64,000 nt of DNA from Enterobacteria phage ATK47: sequence record NC_055708.1. One strand, written 5' to 3'. Positions within the stretch are counted from its first letter, which is position 1. Each line of letters begins with the position of its first letter. A program made the position numbers and the translations under genes. A model generated the notes under the pieces. It ran no database searches. It was not told the origin of the DNA and was given only the letters and a program-made list of their open reading frames with translations. This document shows, in pieces, positions 2,707-45,924 of the stretch.

Positions 2707-3519
2707 TTAGAAACGAGATGCGACTTTCGCATATAAACTTACATTAGAATTCTGTTCTACCTGAGTTGTGGTAGTGTCAACTGCTTCGGCAACAAAATTA
2801 AGACCGGCAGCGTCATTGTCAACTGTATTTATACTTTCGGTAATAGCGGCTTCTTCTTTAGTAGAACCTTTAACCATTTCTACAATAGCAGTTAACTTAG
2901 TACCAAATGCGTCAGAATAATCCATACCTTCAACCAGGCCAATAACTTTTTCTTTCTGAGATTCAGTCAGGTCTTTTACGCTTTCATTAATAGCGGTTTC
3001 ACGCTGAACGTAATTGATATATGCATCACGTTTGGTAACTTCTTCGAACAAACGAGCGGTTTCTTCTTTATGTTCGGCCAGCTCTTCTTCCATTTCTGCT
3101 ACAACATCTACAGATTCTTCTGGAACAACAACGTTATGTTCAACAAACAGTTCTTTCAGACCACCAAGCATGGATTCGAACAAATCAGCTTTAATGCCTT
3201 TATCAACTGCGATTTGGTTTTCTGCGAGCCATTCTTTTGCAAGATGGTCTAGGAATTTAGAAGCTTGTTCAGCCAATTTTTTATCAGCTTTCTCTTCAGC
3301 ATCTTCTTTGGCCTTTTCAACTTCTTCTTCAGCCTTTTCGGCGATGGCTTTGATATGAGATTCAGCCAGTTTGACTGCTTCCTGCTTAACGGTGGCTTCG
3401 AATACAGTGCTGAAATTAGCTTTAACGTCCGGAGACAGTTCTACTGATTCGAAAACACTATTAAGAGCAACTGAAGTCTCGATGTTCTGAGCTTCTTTCA
3501 AAAGTTGTTCTTTGATCAT
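2707..3519 (-). CDS. 22: prohead core scaffold protein gp22
   Basis: 270 aa, acidic helical protein, immediately upstream of 23; size and synteny as T4 gp22. Confidence 0.85.
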   Translation of the reverse strand: MIKEQLLKEAQNIETSVALNSVFESVELSPDVKANFSTVFEATVKQEAVKLAESHIKAIAEKAEEEVEKAKEDAEEKADKKLAEQASKFLDHLAKEWLAENQIAVDKGIKADLFESMLGGLKELFVEHNVVVPEESVDVVAEMEEELAEHKEETARLFEEVTKRDAYINYVQRETAINESVKDLTESQKEKVIGLVEGMDYSDAFGTKLTAIVEMVKGSTKEEAAITESINTVDNDAAGLNFVAEAVDTTTTQVEQNSNVSLYAKVASRF

Positions 3520-3549
3520 TTTAGTGTCCTGTGGTTTAGATTACATTAT

Positions 3550-3557
3550 TATTTATA
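3550..3557 (-). promoter_or_regulatory. T4-type late promoter TATAAATA (gene 22)
   Basis: Exact TATAAATA on minus strand 30 nt upstream of gene 22 ATG. Confidence 0.6.
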
Positions 3558-4200
3558 ATGCTTTTAAACTCTCTGCGAGAGCTTTAAATGCTTCGTCAGC
3601 ACTGTTTTTGGTGATTTCCACCGAATTTTCTGATTCTGATTCTGATATTTGTTTAGGAGTAACCCAAGCATCTGGAGCAGAAGGTCCCCATACGGCATCT
3701 ACGCCGACGGTTAATTTAAATCCTTCGTTCACGATACGGTACCCTTTATTGGTGTCGGTTAAAGAACCAAGACCACGAGAGGAAACACCTGGAATCCAAC
3801 CAGCTCGTATATTAGCAGCTAATTTATCGCCGGGACCATGGTCACCTTCAATAATTCTAGCACGTCCATATACATCGTTTCCTTTCCACCACATATCTTC
3901 AATAATGATAGCGGCTTGCATAGGGTCAACATTTGCACGAGGTGGATGGTTTAATTCTCCAAGGGCTTGTTTGGTTGCGACTTGTTCTTTAATATAGTCA
4001 CTTACTGCTTTTTCCAAAACGCGTTTAGGATATAAACGTTTATTTCGGTTAACAACCTCTGCCTGAAGAAAAATACCTTCTATATAAAGCCCTGGTTTTA
4101 AGCCAGAATCTTTTCCATCATGAGATTCCAACATTGGAACGCCATCAATAATCTCACCGGGTTGACCCCAAGTTTCAATAAGTAACTCGGGTTTATTCAT
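3553..4200 (-). CDS. 21: prohead protease gp21
   Basis: 215 aa; position and size as T4 gp21. Confidence 0.85.
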   Translation of the reverse strand: MNKPELLIETWGQPGEIIDGVPMLESHDGKDSGLKPGLYIEGIFLQAEVVNRNKRLYPKRVLEKAVSDYIKEQVATKQALGELNHPPRANVDPMQAAIIIEDMWWKGNDVYGRARIIEGDHGPGDKLAANIRAGWIPGVSSRGLGSLTDTNKGYRIVNEGFKLTVGVDAVWGPSAPDAWVTPKQISESESENSVEITKNSADEAFKALAESLKAL

Positions 4201-4625
4201 TAGCTTAATCCTAATGCTTTACGACGTTTAAGAGCCTTTTTACGCTTACGCAAGCCTTTAACTTGGCCTGAAGGGTTAGCTTTTTTAGCTTTAACGACCT
4301 TACGAGCGATTTGTCTACGTTTTGCTTTAGAAAGACCAGTGGTTTGGAACGCGTTACGTTCACGAGTTTTACGGTCTTTAGTGCGGGTGACTTCACCACG
4401 AGAAGAAACATGTTTAACGATAAACTCATTTAACTGTTCTTCATTAATAATGGAAGCCATTGCAACAGCTAAATCCGTTTCAGTTTCAAGCATGTTCTCG
4501 ATAATAGTATTTATATCGTCAATATCGAGAGCAGAAGACAATGCATCGATTCGGCCCTGTGCTTCAGGAATAAGTGCTTCGACATTTTCGAGTACCAATT
4601 CATAAGATTCAGGGATAAGATACAT
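4200..4625 (-). CDS. 68: prohead core protein gp68
   Basis: 141 aa, same length and position as T4 gp68. Confidence 0.8.
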
Positions 4626-4864
4626 TATTCATCGTCCTCATCATCTTCGTCTTCGTCGTCATCGCCTTCATCAGCGTCGTCTTCCGAAGCTTTAGCTTTC
4701 TTTTCTTCTTCTTCAGGTTCTTCGCCTTCAATCAAAAATTGAGAAGCGATTTCTGCTTTGCGTGCTTCAATCAAACGAACCGCTTTTTCTGCCATTGCAC
4801 TTTCAAAAAACTTTCGAGTAGCAACGAGGTCGTTTGATTTAATAGCTTGAATTAAATCGTCCAT
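4625..4864 (-). CDS. 67: prohead core protein gp67
   Basis: 79 aa with poly-acidic C-terminus ([15 protein letters not shown]); position as T4 gp67. Confidence 0.8.
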
Positions 4865-12284: not shown

Positions 12285-12333
12285 TTCTCCTAACCGGCCT
12301 TTCGACCGGTGTTTGCTTTATCTTATCTATTTA

Positions 12334-13098
12334 TTAATTCATAAACCCATCGTCAAATGGTGAATTTTGTCTACCACGGTTGTTAACTACTACATACGGC
12401 TCAACGTATTCACTTGCCTCTGAATTGATTTGCTCAACTTCAGAATATTCATCGATATTAATGTCATGGATACCGTCAAGATTTCTAACAGGGTTAAGTT
12501 CCAAGTCACTAAATTCAGGTATATTGATACCTTCATTTTTCTGAAGCACCGGATTGATTTCTTCGCCAGAGTAAATAAACTTGCCTGCAGTAATTTTACG
12601 AATCGCATTTTTACCTACTTGATAGAATGGGTCGTATGGTTCAACCCAGTTAATCTCAAACAAACTGTTGTCCATTGGGAAGTATATTAAATCACCTTCC
12701 TTGGGCTCCTGATTGTTGACCTGGTGTTTGAAAAGACCTGGGTTAATAGATAATGTAACTTCGTCTTGAACTTGCATTCCGAAGTTGCTGAAGAACGATT
12801 TCGCTCCTTCATAACCTTCAAAAGAGTTCAGATATGCAGCAAATTTCCATGCTTTAGTAAATTTATTTTTAAGGTCCTCACCAAAGATAAGGTCCACGGC
12901 AACATATTCACGTGGAACATAAAAACATTCAATACCGCGCATCTGTATGCTTTCTGCCACTAGAACATCGGCTAATGTCTGACTATTCTCATAGTTATTA
13001 AAATTGACAAATGGATTGAGGATTTCGGTCTCATTTGTCTGAGAATACCCACCACGATTTTCTAGTTTGGCGAAAAGATTTTTATCATAAGTTGCCAT
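12334..13098 (-). CDS. 14: neck protein gp14
   Basis: 254 aa; synteny with T4 gp14. Confidence 0.8.
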
Positions 13099-33193: not shown

Positions 33194-33205
33194 TTTTACA
33201 AAACA

Positions 33206-33235
33206 GTTTACATAAGGATGATGGCGTGTTACTAT
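33206..33235 (+). promoter_or_regulatory. T4-type early promoter within palindrome
   Basis: GTTTAC, 18 nt, TACTAT; GGATGAT/ATCATCC inverted repeat flanks the -10. Confidence 0.6.
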
Positions 33236-33269
33236 CATCCTATCAAATAAACGACCTCAAGGAAATAAA

Positions 33270-33557
33270 ATGAAAACCTATAAAGAATTTATATCACCTG
33301 ATGCTAACGTTTCTACTCTGACCGAAGCGACCCTTACTTCCGAAGTTATTAAAGCAAATAAAGGACGTGAGGGTAAACCAATGATTAGTCTGGTTGACGG
33401 CGAAGAAGTAAAAGGTACTGTTTACTTAGGGGATGGATGGTCTGCTAAGAAAGATGGCGCTACTATTGTTATCTCTCCGGCTGAAGAGACTGCACTGTTT
33501 AAAGCTAAGCATATTTCTGTAGCTCAGCTTAAAATTATTGCAAAAACCCTTCTGTAA
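33270..33557 (+). CDS. internal protein with capsid-targeting leader (ipI position)
   Basis: 95 aa; N-terminus MKTYKEFI matches T4 internal-protein CTS consensus MKTYQEFIAE; adjacent to 57B as T4 ipI. Confidence 0.75.
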   Translation: MKTYKEFISPDANVSTLTEATLTSEVIKANKGREGKPMISLVDGEEVKGTVYLGDGWSAKKDGATIVISPAEETALFKAKHISVAQLKIIAKTLL

Positions 33558-33560
33558 GTA

Positions 33561-33590
33561 GTTTACATGCTGATAGGATTATGGTATAGT
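33561..33590 (+). promoter_or_regulatory. T4-type early promoter within palindrome
   Basis: GTTTAC, 18 nt, TATAGT; ATAGGA...TCCTAT inverted repeat. Confidence 0.6.
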
Positions 33591-33620
33591 AGTCCTATCA
33601 AAATTAATTAGGAAAATAAA

Positions 33621-33929
33621 ATGAAAACTTTCAAAGAATTTATCAATGAAGCGGCTGCACCAAAGACATTCGTTATTAATACTCAAGCGAGTCTTGATGA
33701 TGAGTACGCGGATGCAATTCTGAGGTCACTTGCTAAGAACGGCGTTGAAGTATCTGCATCAGACTTTAAGAAAGGGTCTTCCGAGATGTTTATTTCTATA
33801 GTTAAAGGATCTAAAGCTAAGATTAAATCATCATTCGGAGTTGCTCGTACCGATCAAATCGACAGTCATGACTTTAAACAAACCGGCGTTAAACGGCAGA
33901 ATACGATTGCATCACGCGGAATAAAATAG
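33621..33929 (+). CDS. internal protein-like (CTS leader)
   Basis: 102 aa; N-terminus MKTFKEFINE with I-N-E site resembling prohead protease motif. Confidence 0.7.
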   Translation: MKTFKEFINEAAAPKTFVINTQASLDDEYADAILRSLAKNGVEVSASDFKKGSSEMFISIVKGSKAKIKSSFGVARTDQIDSHDFKQTGVKRQNTIASRGIK

Positions 33930-33940
33930 TTTATAAAACC

Positions 33941-33970
33941 GTTTACTTTTAGATAGGGTAGTGATACTAT
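33941..33970 (+). promoter_or_regulatory. T4-type early promoter within palindrome
   Basis: GTTTAC, 18 nt, TG-a-TACTAT; ATAGGGTA...TACCCTAT inverted repeat. Confidence 0.6.
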
Positions 33971-33998
33971 TACCCTATCAACTACTGAGGAGAATAAA

Positions 33999-35434: not shown

Positions 35435-35509
35435 GGCCCTGTAGCTCAATGGGAGAGCTGTCAGCTCATAACTGATAGGTAGCTGGATCGAAACCAGCCA
35501 GGGTCACCA
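35435..35509 (+). tRNA. tRNA, anticodon CAT (Met, or Ile2 if lysidine-modified as in T4 tRNA-Ile)
   Basis: Cloverleaf folded by hand: acceptor GGCCCTG/CAGGGTC, D-stem GCTC/GAGC, anticodon loop CTCATAA, T-stem GCTGG/CCAGC, encoded CCA. Confidence 0.8.
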
Positions 35510-35512
35510 ATT

Positions 35513-35589
<77 letters not shown>

Positions 35590-35607: not shown

Positions 35608-35952
35608 ATGAAAGGTAATATTTATCTGGTAGTTCATGATTTAACGTTTTATTTTAACGAACAGGATACAGTTATTTCCGACCGGTTGATTAATTCATTA
35701 TATCAACACGCTGATTACGTTTATTTCCAAAATGAATTTGGCCATTGGAAGTTTCTTAAAAACCGTTCCGGGTTAACTAGTTTTGAATACTTTGACCGTA
35801 AAGACCTTTTAAACGAAATCCCATTGCAACATCGGTTCCAGAAACGCGAATCACTATACTATTGTCGCCATATACCAAATGCTGAATGTGTTTATGAAGC
35901 GATTAATCTATGGCGTCGGCGTCGAGAGCAAATTGATGATATGCCAAAATAA
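35608..35952 (+). CDS. hypothetical protein (114 aa) downstream of tRNAs
   Basis: SD GAGGAAA 4 nt from tRNA end, ATG 35608; could alternatively be non-coding. Confidence 0.45.
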   Translation: MKGNIYLVVHDLTFYFNEQDTVISDRLINSLYQHADYVYFQNEFGHWKFLKNRSGLTSFEYFDRKDLLNEIPLQHRFQKRESLYYCRHIPNAECVYEAINLWRRRREQIDDMPK

Positions 35953-36264
35953 GAAGCCGGGTCGCTACCGGCAAGTCGTCGGACTGATGTTCCCTGAGTA
36001 AGGACTGGTCTTAATAAATCTTTATGATTTGTTAATATCCCCTTACATCACAGCAGAAACGGCGCACAAAATTATCGATTCGAGGAAATATCTTTGCCGT
36101 AATCCGAGTAGCGTTTTTGACGGAACGTTCGGATATGGTCGAGATATGGCCTTTTAAAAATATTGAGTAGCGTCAACTGCTTAATAACCAGGTTCAAATC
36201 CCGGCGTTTCGTACAAACACTTGCCTTAGCAGGTGGAACCCCGACAAGGTTGCCGCAAGGCTTA
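35953..36264 (+). ncRNA. candidate stable structured RNA (position analogous to T4 species 1/2 RNAs)
   Basis: About 310 nt without ORF, GC-balanced with several local inverted repeats and a T-loop-like GGTTCAAATCC, ending at a terminator. Confidence 0.3.
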
Positions 36265-36290
36265 GCCCCTTCCGAAAGGTTGGGGCTTTT
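36265..36290 (+). terminator. rho-independent terminator
   Basis: GCCCC...GGGGC stem with GAAA loop followed by TTTT. Confidence 0.65.
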
Positions 36291-36335
36291 GGCATAATAA
36301 TAAATAGATAAGTTAATTAACTTAGGAAAAGCAAC

Positions 36336-36800
36336 ATGAAATCATACGCTGAATTTTTGACTGAACAATCTAGTTCAGATGTAAAAGCCGCTGCGATTGC
36401 AGCAATTCAAGCAGGTAAATATTCTTACAAAGACGCCTCTGATGAAGAACGTTTCCGTTTTATTAGAGATTTTAAAGCCGAAGGTTTTACTAATGCTAAT
36501 ACTGTTAGCCGAGTTTTTAAAAGCCTAGCTGCATCAGGTGAATTGTTCCAGAAAGCTACAGGTAAAGCACCTGCGCCAAAAACAGACCCTAAAGCAGCTC
36601 AAGAAAAAAATATCGCCAAAGGAATTATTTCTAAGTATGAAGCAATTCTTAAAGAGCTTTTAGTAATCAAAACAGAAGGCCAGAAACTGGCACGAGCACA
36701 TAGCTTCAAAGATAATCCTCACGCTCATAGCCTTGAGTATGTTGAAGATATCCAAAAACTTATTAAAGACCGTATCTGGTCTGCTAAACAAATTAAATAA
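36336..36800 (+). CDS. internal protein-like (CTS leader)
   Basis: 154 aa; N-terminus MKSYAEFLTE matches CTS pattern. Confidence 0.7.
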   Translation: MKSYAEFLTEQSSSDVKAAAIAAIQAGKYSYKDASDEERFRFIRDFKAEGFTNANTVSRVFKSLAASGELFQKATGKAPAPKTDPKAAQEKNIAKGIISKYEAILKELLVIKTEGQKLARAHSFKDNPHAHSLEYVEDIQKLIKDRIWSAKQIK

Positions 36801-36806
36801 TAGAAT

Positions 36807-36835
36807 GCCCCTTCCTTATGGTTGGGGCCTTTTGG
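36807..36835 (+). terminator. rho-independent terminator (repeat copy 2)
   Basis: GCCCCTTCCTTATGGTTGGGGC followed by CTTTTGG. Confidence 0.65.
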
Positions 36836-36866
36836 TATCTAGGGCATAAAAATATTTCATAAAGAT

Positions 36867-36895
36867 GTTTACTTCTTCCCTAGATGTGTTACTAT
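36867..36895 (+). promoter_or_regulatory. T4-type early promoter
   Basis: GTTTAC, 17 nt, TG-t-TACTAT. Confidence 0.6.
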
Positions 36896-36923
36896 AGATT
36901 TATCAACCACAGAGGAAAATATT

Positions 36924-37427
36924 ATGAGTCTTTACACTGAACTGAATAAAAAATCTGAAGAATCTGCTGAAACTATTTTTAAAAACGTGCAAAAGCGTAT
37001 TTTGGAAAAGATGTACGATGCAGCATCTAAAGGTGAAAAATCTTGCCGGTTTCCGATGAGGTGTTCTTCTGATTTATGCGCAAATACTATTGAATGGCTG
37101 GAAAGTGAAGGTCTTACGGTAGAGAAAAACCCGGCGACTTCTATTGACAGTGAATCATATATTAGTATTTCTTGGGATAAATCAAGGGTAGAAGAGAAAG
37201 ATGGTGATTGGGTTGTAGATGTTAAAACTTCTGATGGTGGACGTTCTGTTGAAGTTTCAGCTGTAGTTAAAGGTACCCACGGACAAAGGACTTGGGGTTG
37301 GGGTGGTGAAGAAAAAGAAATTGTTCTTAGTGTGATTGCAAGGTCTACTAGCAATAAAATTGCCCAGAGCATCATCTATGCTGCATGTATCGAAGCTGGA
37401 AAAATTTGCAAAATTAAAAATAAATGA
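36924..37427 (+). CDS. hypothetical protein (167 aa)
   Basis: SD GAGGAAA; ORF. Confidence 0.6.
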   Translation: MSLYTELNKKSEESAETIFKNVQKRILEKMYDAASKGEKSCRFPMRCSSDLCANTIEWLESEGLTVEKNPATSIDSESYISISWDKSRVEEKDGDWVVDVKTSDGGRSVEVSAVVKGTHGQRTWGWGGEEKEIVLSVIARSTSNKIAQSIIYAACIEAGKICKIKNK

Positions 37428-44314: not shown

Positions 44315-44320
44315 GTAATA

Positions 44321-44348
44321 AATACCTCCTATAAACGTGGGAGGTATT
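44321..44348 (+). promoter_or_regulatory. SD-sequestering hairpin with late-promoter-like element for lysozyme gene
   Basis: AATACCTCC / GGAGGTATT 9-bp stem pairs the SD; AATAAATA (44317-44324) and TATAAACG in the loop region. Confidence 0.6.
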
Positions 44349-44837
44349 ATGAATATATTTGAAATGCTTCGTAATGACGAAGGTCTTAGACTGACTTTAT
44401 ACAAAGACACTGAAGGCTTTTGGACGATTGGCATAGGCCATTTAGTAACAAAGAACCCGTCTTTAGCCGTAGCTAAAGCTGAACTTGACAGAATGATCGG
44501 CCGTAAATGCAACGGTACAATTACCCTTGATGAGGCTGAAAAGCTATTTAATGAAGACGTTGATAAAGCTGTCCGCGGAATCTTGGGTAATGCTAAACTT
44601 AAACCGGTATATGATTCTTTAGATGCAGTTCGTCGGTGTGCATTGGTCAATATGGTCTTCCAAATGGGTGTAGCAGGAGTCGCCGGTTTTACTAATTCTC
44701 TTCGTATGCTTAAACAGAAACGTTGGGATGAAGCGGCAGTAAATCTAGCTCAATCTAAATGGTATCGTCAGACACCTAATCGCGCGAAACGCGTAATCTC
44801 AACATTTAAAACAGGAACTTGGAAAGCGTATATATGA
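44349..44837 (+). CDS. e: lysozyme (endolysin)
   Basis: [31 protein letters not shown]; about 85 percent identical to T4 lysozyme as recalled. Confidence 0.97.
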
Positions 44838-45115
44838 AAACATATAGTGAATTTTTATCAGAATCTATTCTTAACGAAGCTACTGACACATTTGCAACTA
44901 AGCTAGGTGCAGCTTTGGTTGAAGCTGAAAGTCTATTAGCACGTATTTCTGAACTTGCTAGTAAGATAGATACTCGCAAATTTGAACGTACCAGCGATAT
45001 CGCTAAGCTTGAAGCCTTGTTGCGTATGTGCGATAAACCAGAAGAAATCGCTAAGAACGGCTCGCTGATGAAACAACGTCTTGAAAAATATATTTCAGGC
45101 GCTTCAGAAAAATAG
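44834..45115 (+). CDS. internal protein-like (CTS leader)
   Basis: 93 aa from ATG 44834; N-terminus [15 protein letters not shown]. Confidence 0.7.
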
Positions 45116-45594: not shown

Positions 45595-45924
45595 ATGAAA
45601 ACATATCAAGAGTTTATCACTGAAGTTACATTATCTGCGGAACAGAAAGCTGCTATCGAAGAAAGTAAAAATCCCAAAGTAACATATAAAGTAAATAGTA
45701 AAGGCGTTTTTGATGGCTTGGTTCAAGACCCTGAATTGAAAAAAGCTCTTTCTAAAACTAATGCGTACTTTGCTCCTAAATTTAACACAGCCGGTGTACT
45801 TATTGGATTGGATGTATTCAACTCTAAAGGTGTTCTATCTAATGCCTTTGGCTATGCCGCTAACAAAATTACCAAAGCCGCATGGGAATCCAATACCAAA
45901 CAAGCTCAAAAGCCTAGAGTATAA
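45595..45924 (+). CDS. internal protein-like (CTS leader)
   Basis: 109 aa from ATG 45595; N-terminus MKTYQEFITE. Confidence 0.7.
   Translation: MKTYQEFITEVTLSAEQKAAIEESKNPKVTYKVNSKGVFDGLVQDPELKKALSKTNAYFAPKFNTAGVLIGLDVFNSKGVLSNAFGYAANKITKAAWESNTKQAQKPRV

Follow-up and report, generated by a model that had tools for sequence, protein, structure and literature searches.

ORF154, a putative T4-type internal head protein gene downstream of rnaC in Enterobacteria phage ATK47

Introduction

Does the short gene that follows the tRNA genes and stable RNAs of Enterobacteria phage ATK47, at a site where T4 has no gene, encode a protein that is packed into the phage head and injected with the DNA? An earlier note, made from the letters of this DNA, described it as the third gene with a capsid-targeting leader and as a candidate novel injected protein. 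We followed up this proposal computationally in the window, i.e. the whole analysed stretch of 64,000 nt (record NC_055708.1), and in related phage genomes.

In T4, residues 1-10 of the internal protein IPIII are all that a foreign protein needs to enter the head (PMC9026906). Targeting rests mainly on residues 4 and 7 and processing on residues 8 and 10, and the gp21 protease cleaves after L/I-x-E (PMC9026906). All four characterised leader-bearing internal proteins (IPs) are specific inhibitors of type IV restriction (PMC12373910; 10.1101/2025.11.20.689424): T4 Ip1, Ip2 and Ip3 act against GmrSD enzymes, a different one in each case (PMC12373910), and the leader-bearing Bas37_0260 blocks McrBC (preprint 10.1101/2025.11.20.689424).

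Results

ORF154 and its conservation

The 154-aa protein with the start MKSYAEFLTE, as described in the earlier note, was confirmed at 36336-36800 on the plus strand, with L-T-E as residues 8-10. We refer to it as ORF154. The gene and its surroundings comprise the following features.

35435-35509: tRNA-Met
35513-35589: tRNA-Arg
35608-35952: conserved 114-aa ORF (phrog_3355, RB69 ORF150c-like), between tRNA-Arg and rnaD/rnaC
36075..36213, plus strand: rnaC (species 1 RNA), mapped from the ATK48 annotation; context, outside the ORF154 gene
36265..36290, plus strand: upstream hairpin with U-run (-19.2 kcal/mol), terminator of the tRNA-rnaC unit; left border of the cassette
36299..36306, plus strand: late-promoter-like AATAAATA, agreeing with the T4 late consensus TATAAATA at 7 of 8 positions, 29 nt upstream of the ATG
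36336..36800 including the stop codon, plus strand: ORF154, putative internal head protein precursor (154 aa, 17.2 kDa, pI 9.5, 21 Lys)
36807..36832, plus strand: downstream hairpin with U-run (-16.4 kcal/mol, z -2.6), ORF154's own terminator; right border of the cassette

The start codon, ATG, is preceded at 8 nt by the ribosome-binding site AGGA, and the sequence begins MKSYAEFLTEQSSS. The 2.1 kb around ORF154 were 100% identical to Enterobacteria phage ATK48 (Mosigvirus, RB69 group). The ATK48 record, KT184310, leaves ORF154 unannotated, together with the 102-aa IP gene at 33621 and the 167-aa gene at 36924. The missing annotation would suit a spurious ORF in an intergenic spacer, but this reading is already refuted by the conservation pattern and its probability is negligible. 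Compared with the orthologue in phage RB68 (~73% amino acid identity), dN/dS was ~0.07 (pS 0.69, pN 0.125), with synonymous divergence that is saturating. In addition, full-length homologues occur in ~510 phage genomes of several genera, the AlphaFold (AF2) model is confident, and peptides of the homologue in phage fD1 have been observed. ORF154 is thus a real gene under purifying selection.

The two halves of the gene diverged unevenly from RB68. The C-half had a pN of 0.01-0.05 and the N-half a pN of 0.2; synonymous divergence was equal in both, so the unevenness reflects differential constraint. Recent recombination as the source of the near-identical C-half was ruled out, because synonymous divergence there is as high as in the N-half. 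Between Mosigvirus and Tequatrovirus, codons 96-154 were 94-97% identical and codons 1-95 were 67-70% identical. Across genera, by contrast, the N-domain is the most recognisable part.

Family and distribution

ORF154 matched phrog_2280 at 1.4e-53, a family labelled as function unknown in PHROGs. A tblastn search revealed a homologue in ~510 phage records: 69 at ≥95% identity (Mosigvirus), ~400 at 60-80% (Tequatrovirus, including RB68, AR1, wV7, ime09 and Yersinia phiD1) and 41 that were more distant (Klebsiella phages and others). Nearly all of them sit at the same site as ORF154. When 1.84 billion representative proteins were searched exhaustively with an HMM, only 11 clusters were retrieved, none tied to a characterised family. 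Nine of these were relatives or fragments from T4-like enterobacterial phages (among them phages of Klebsiella, Yersinia, Serratia and Cronobacter), and the remaining two were a chimeric sequence and a weak match to a 1529-aa repetitive protein. The family aligns end to end via intermediates such as P0021. The database name is "hypothetical protein" throughout, with the exception of a UniRef relative from a Klebsiella phage that is named "Internal head protein". The gene holds up as a leader-bearing candidate for an injected protein, and its novelty is relative, considering that phrog_2280 is present in ~510 phages. It is an essentially unannotated addition to a well-known kind of protein, not a new principle.

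Protein architecture and similarity searches

In the AlphaFold models, the leader is disordered and the three-helix N-domain confident (pLDDT 91 when it is modelled by itself); a Lys/Pro linker and a long helical hairpin come after it.

36336..36365, plus strand: leader MKSYAEFLTE, codons 1-10; predicted gp21 cleavage after Glu10, Q follows
36366..36560, plus strand: N-domain, residues 11-75; predicted three-helix bundle, best kept across genera
36561..36611, plus strand: Lys/Pro/Ala-rich linker, residues 76-92, GKAPAPKTDPKAAQEKN; low pLDDT of 62-69
36612..36797, plus strand: C-domain, residues 93-154; predicted long helical hairpin, very strong constraint between Mosigvirus and Tequatrovirus

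The N-domain carries the motif GKYSYKD.SDESRFQF.RDMKAEGF...AWKS and, according to the AF2 model and the fold search, would be a helix-turn-helix-like (HTH-like) three-helix bundle.

Searches with ORF154 retrieved few informative matches. Pfam gave none above threshold; GemA, MerR_1 and BKRF4 were rejected as sub-threshold noise. Searching PDB sequences with a profile of the family yielded nothing but streptavidin noise (E ≥ 0.03). Foldseek against viral models found its own family only, and the fold searches returned generic helical matches only. No fold or sequence match to an anti-defence activity appeared in the Pfam, PDB and fold searches. Similarity to IPI* (Pfam IPI_T4), Ip2 or Ip3 was likewise not detected by sequence or fold. 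With hhalign, the comparison with IPII gave E 0.014 and 3% probability over residues 2-46, and the comparison with IPIII gave nothing. Homology to T4 IPII, for which phrog_7857 matched with E 0.007 over residues 1-43, was not accepted in view of the 3% hhalign probability. The known type IV restriction inhibitors among the IPs are themselves mutually unrelated (PMC12373910). Therefore, the missing similarity to Ip1-3 leaves the same function possible for ORF154.

The capsid-targeting leader

Residues Y4, F7, L8 and E10 of ORF154 are the four positions mapped in T4 IPIII: an aromatic residue at 4, Phe at the hydrophobic position 7, and L-T-E in agreement with the L/I-x-E motif of gp21. Cleavage after Glu10 would leave a predicted mature product of 144 aa (16.0 kDa, pI 9.6, 13.6% Lys) with the N-terminus QSSSDVK, while an intact leader would give the N-terminal peptide SYAEFLTEQSSSDVK. 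The AF2 model shows residues 1-8 as disordered.

The pattern of an aromatic residue at 4, a hydrophobic one at 7, Leu8 and Glu10, with A, G, Q or S as the next residue, holds for every family sequence examined except P0002, a rare variant in a single-member cluster, which reads FLMTE and in which the L-x-E register is shifted. It persists in members just 23-38% identical to ORF154. The leaders of relatives, with the predicted cut shown by a slash, include MKFKEFLAE/A, MITFNDILVE/G, MLNFNELLSE/G, MKSFSSFLNE/G and MLKFNEFLAE/G. Between ATK48 and RB68, Tyr4 (TAC/TAT) and Leu8 (TTG/TTA) are preserved by synonymous changes. The survival of the critical residues through both divergence and synonymous changes indicates that selection acts on the leader peptide, and that the leader is not leftover recombination homology.

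A loose six-frame scan of the 64 kb with MK[TSN][YF]..F[ILVM] gave exactly five matches, and all five were the start codons of plus-strand ORFs of 93-154 aa. The ORF154 leader is therefore not a chance match. ORF154 is the third of these genes in order, as the earlier note had counted; the scan makes it the third of five, not of three. The five genes are spread over three loci in the window, and the four others are as follows.

33270-33557, plus strand: ipI (Pfam IPI_T4 at 1.4e-50), 57B-side locus
33621-33929, plus strand: second IP, 102 aa, MKTFKEFINE/AAAP (cut at the slash), phrog_2667 "internal head protein" at 3.8e-41, 57B-side locus
44834-45115, plus strand: leader-bearing 93-aa gene, leader ending SILNE and followed by A (phrog_3499); its start overlaps the stop of e
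45595-45924, plus strand: leader-bearing 109-aa gene, MKTYQEFITE followed by V (phrog_3966 over its full length, "unknown function")

The last two flank denV beside the lysozyme gene e, which is the second classical IP locus. The four ORFs thus occupy the two classical IP loci; three have an IP family as their match (IPI_T4, phrog_2667, phrog_3499).

The machinery on which CTS-bearing IPs depend in T4, namely the gp21 protease and the gp22/gp67/gp68 core, is encoded in the same genome.

3553..4200, minus strand: gp21 prohead protease, the expected leader-removing enzyme (Pfam Peptidase_S77 at 3e-107)

Its neighbours in the window are gp22 scaffold, gp67, gp68, gp20 portal and gp23. Within 2707-4864 (minus strand), the Pfam matches were Peptidase_S77 (3e-107), T4_CASP (1.5e-89) and GP67 (4.7e-19).

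Detection of a homologue in virions

Yersinia phage fD1 (phiD1) has a 157-aa homologue, g140, that is ~73% identical to ORF154 and located at the same site. In ultracentrifugation-purified fD1 virions, g140 passed the strict LC-MS/MS threshold and was listed without a T4 counterpart (PMC8309999 Table S3). The phage's two other leader-bearing products, g129 (T2 Ip4-like) and g146 (ipI locus), also passed, and the neighbours g138, g139 and g145 were below the threshold (PMC8309999 Table S3). The fD1 list covers 113-137 of the 277 gene products (41-49%), including DenV, NudE and lysozyme (PMC8309999). Because the list is this unspecific, the detection of g140 is modest support and raises the odds only about twofold. 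A g140 peptide that begins at Ala11 would read AVLNEASSTEIQAVAK.

A cassette absent from T4

The earlier note placed the gene after a block of tRNAs and structured RNA and gave it its own terminator. Both points were borne out: tRNA-Met, tRNA-Arg, the 114-aa ORF and rnaC lie upstream, and a hairpin with a U-run follows the stop codon at 36807-36832. Rfam matched the two tRNAs only, and rnaC scored below every Rfam model; it is nearly identical to T4 rnaC. The 114-aa ORF sits inside the stable-RNA transcription unit, and the end of the RB68 version overlaps the annotated rnaD. The downstream hairpin is an 85% copy of the rnaC-trailer hairpin.

The gene order of the window is that of T4 read backwards: 2, 3, 1, 57A, 57B, ipI and the second IP, then trna.4-/trna.3-like genes, tRNAs, rnaC, ORF154, ORF167, frd.3, e.6 and e.5. 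ORF167, at 36924-37427, encodes a conserved 167-aa protein that matches phrog_6869 at 8.5e-91. In T4, the interval from rnaC to e.8 is free of genes, in agreement with the earlier note, and we found no gene at the post-rnaC site of T2 and T6 either. RB68 shows the same layout as the window (hairpin-gene-hairpin). In T4, a single hairpin runs straight into the sequence that is found after the second hairpin of RB68. It follows that T4 lacks exactly the unit of promoter, gene and hairpin. What had been called an isolated cassette is therefore a self-contained promoter-gene-terminator unit, and the comparison of this site among genomes, which had been proposed as a check, showed it to be empty in T2, T4 and T6 and filled in RB68, fD1 and one further genome, L010.

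The site also holds other genes. In the IMG/VR contigs L007 and L009, the ORF154-family gene is followed by a second cassette with a 187-aa protein (N-terminus MKTYAEFLTE/AAKLPSE). RB69 has the 187-aa type only, and L008 has no cassette at the site. The 187-aa type was found in 165 phage records and is intact in L007 and L009. In RB69 (L004, NC_004928; 9429-9991, minus strand), ORF149c (146 aa, MKTYAEFLTE...) and the overlapping ORF148c are apparently one 187-aa leader-bearing gene split by a frameshift; the reference genome would have either a sequencing error here or a true pseudogene. In L006 (IMGVR_UViG_2706795408_000001), a gene ~100 nt 3′ of the rnaC trailer encodes a leaderless, hydrophobic, membrane-like protein of 184 aa (MKLLKYLSWILLVPLDF...), accompanied by a perfect TATAAATA. 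The site therefore accepts cargo other than head proteins.

The 187-aa form resembles ORF154 in its type of leader (MKTYAEFLTE), in its locus, where the two are sometimes in tandem, in its assignment to phrog_2280 by PHROGs, and in its arrangement of a helical N-part, a K/P-rich middle and a helical C-part. Beyond the leader, by contrast, there is weak collinear similarity. The homology suggested by PHROGs was unconfirmed by hhalign, which aligned the leader only, and by BLASTP of the mature part against P0023 (E 0.03). From these sequence comparisons, homology between the two types is plausible.

Promoter and timing of expression

A perfect TATAAATA lies directly after the upstream hairpin in RB68, L007, L009, L011 and a Klebsiella phage. 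In the window, perfect copies occur 24-32 nt before several ORFs, including the Pfam-confirmed portal and scaffold genes. The variant AATAAATA, which stands before ORF154, is also present 24 nt before lysozyme e (44317-44324) and 43 nt before a gp15-like gene (12328-12335, minus strand), a 274-aa ORF identified by its N-terminal sequence only. Since e and the gp15-like gene carry AATAAATA instead of TATAAATA at the usual distance, this suggests that the late transcription machinery tolerates the variant at the first position. A sigma-70 promoter scan found nothing between the upstream hairpin and the ATG of ORF154. Overall, AATAAATA is no commoner in the window than expected by chance, and late transcription of ORF154 in this phage is likely.

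A T4 early-type promoter (GTTTAC ... TAnnnT) that overlaps an inverted repeat recurs at 33205-33245, 33558-33600, 33940-33985 and 36837-36900, in front of ipI, the 102-aa IP gene, the gene after it and ORF167, respectively. These early-promoter/stem-loop units resemble the shuffling cassettes described for T4-type IP loci, whereas ORF154 has a terminator hairpin and a late-type promoter instead.

Discussion

Comparison with known internal proteins

Like the T4 IPs, which are small, basic and non-essential and vary in presence among relatives, the predicted product of ORF154 is small and basic (16 kDa, pI 9.6) and is variably present. It shares with them a 10-residue leader in which the critical residues agree (Y4, F7, L/I8, E10), the presence of gp21 and gp22 in the phage and, in its relatives, a late promoter. 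It differs in a mature part without significant similarity to any of the three, in its two-domain build and in its position after rnaC instead of at the 57B-trna.4 or e-denV loci. With 16 kDa and two domains, the mature product would be larger than most IPs; T4 IPIII has 20 kDa. Bas37_0260 is, in the same way, a formerly uncharacterised leader-bearing protein of a T-even relative other than T4, and it proved to be an injected inhibitor of type IV restriction (10.1101/2025.11.20.689424). It belongs to the ipI locus, unlike ORF154. It nevertheless sets a precedent for a possible role of ORF154.

Polymorphic IP loci of T-even phages, with Ip4-Ip13, were described by Repoila et al. (1994, EMBO J 13:4181), as reported in PMC12373910 and PMC3012670. 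In these accounts, the number and identity of leader-bearing genes vary between close relatives, and short bounding repeats could mediate gain and loss. At the level of sequence comparison, the post-rnaC site behaves like these classical loci. A difference lies in the borders. The repeat that bounds the ORF154 cassette is a copy of the terminator hairpin of the rnaC trailer, and a late promoter comes after it, whereas the classical loci, including those in the window, have flanks of an early promoter and a stem-loop. As the literature consulted speaks of two IP loci (PMC12373910), the post-rnaC site would be the third. All of T2, T4 and T6 are empty there, which explains why the locus and the family were overlooked.

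A likely internal head protein and its alternatives

We consider it likely that ORF154 is a T4-type internal head protein, loaded by its leader, cleaved by gp21, packaged and injected, and probably directed against a host defence. This reading draws on the conserved leader residues, the late promoter in relatives, gp21 and the scaffold in the window, the cassette absent from T4 and the detection in fD1. In the proposed course of events, late transcription of the gene would start at a gp55-type promoter of its own, just past the rnaC terminator. The leader MKSYAEFLTE would then dock the precursor on the gp22 scaffolding core during prohead assembly, and gp21 would cut after Leu8-Thr9-Glu10. The basic mature protein of 144 aa would remain in the head with the DNA and be ejected with the genome into the next host cell. 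There, by analogy with its class only, it would most likely neutralise a host defence against the incoming modified DNA; the counter-defence target is a guess. Mosigvirus DNA contains arabinosylated 5-hydroxycytosine, and BrxU, an enzyme of the GmrSD family, attacks this DNA (PMC13390438); defences of the type IV kind are therefore a real threat to this phage.

The protein might instead be packaged without being a weapon, with a role inside the head (neutralising the charge of the DNA, organising the genome or assisting the scaffold core) and no host target. Its basic, Lys-rich mature part (pI 9.6) would suit such a role, and so would the modelled HTH-like bundle of its N-domain. For the T4 IPs, DNA binding at low salt is described, and an association with DNA was long assumed (PMC9026906). 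The C-half, nearly invariant between genera (pN 0.01-0.05), is also unlike the fast evolution of an inhibitor in an arms race, although the N-half does evolve quickly (pN 0.2). Against a role in the head, the gene is dispensable in nature, being missing in T2, T4, T6 and about one third of the relatives that share the region, and every one of the four characterised leader-bearing IPs inhibits type IV restriction. Overall, we regard this alternative as unlikely.

Much less probable still is an unpackaged, cytoplasmic protein that acts during infection and whose leader likeness stems from shared ancestry or recombination at the 5′ ends of IP genes. The position of ORF154 at neither classical IP locus could be taken this way, as could the many clearly non-structural proteins that the fD1 virion proteome also includes. 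Such an origin does not fit the survival of the four critical leader residues at 23-38% identity and through synonymous substitutions, nor the late promoter in relatives. Moreover, as residues 1-10 of IPIII are enough for loading in T4 (PMC9026906), any leader-bearing protein that is produced late should enter the head, irrespective of where it came from.

Possible target and use of the family

Within the preferred reading of an injected internal head protein, a more specific one is possible but doubtful: the post-rnaC site would be a third, so far undescribed IP locus, with one or two copies of larger, phrog_2280-type injected proteins of two domains whose target is a defence beyond those of Ip1-3 and the McrBC inhibitor. 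If so, the target might be an enzyme acting on DNA with arabinosylated or glucosylated cytosine, or a defence that senses the ends of incoming DNA, and the HTH-like N-domain together with the coiled-coil hairpin would represent a new counter-defence mechanism.

As every tested CTS-bearing IP inhibits type IV restriction, the ORF154 family is a ready candidate for counter-defence proteins and determinants of host range. The candidate family spans ~500 sequenced coliphages of the therapeutic type and phages of Shigella, Yersinia and Klebsiella, and the natural presence or absence of the cassette offers near-isogenic comparisons. Genome records of such phages, that of ATK48 included, under-annotate internal proteins. 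The leader provides a rule for their annotation: an aromatic residue at position 4, Phe at position 7 and L-x-E at positions 8-10.
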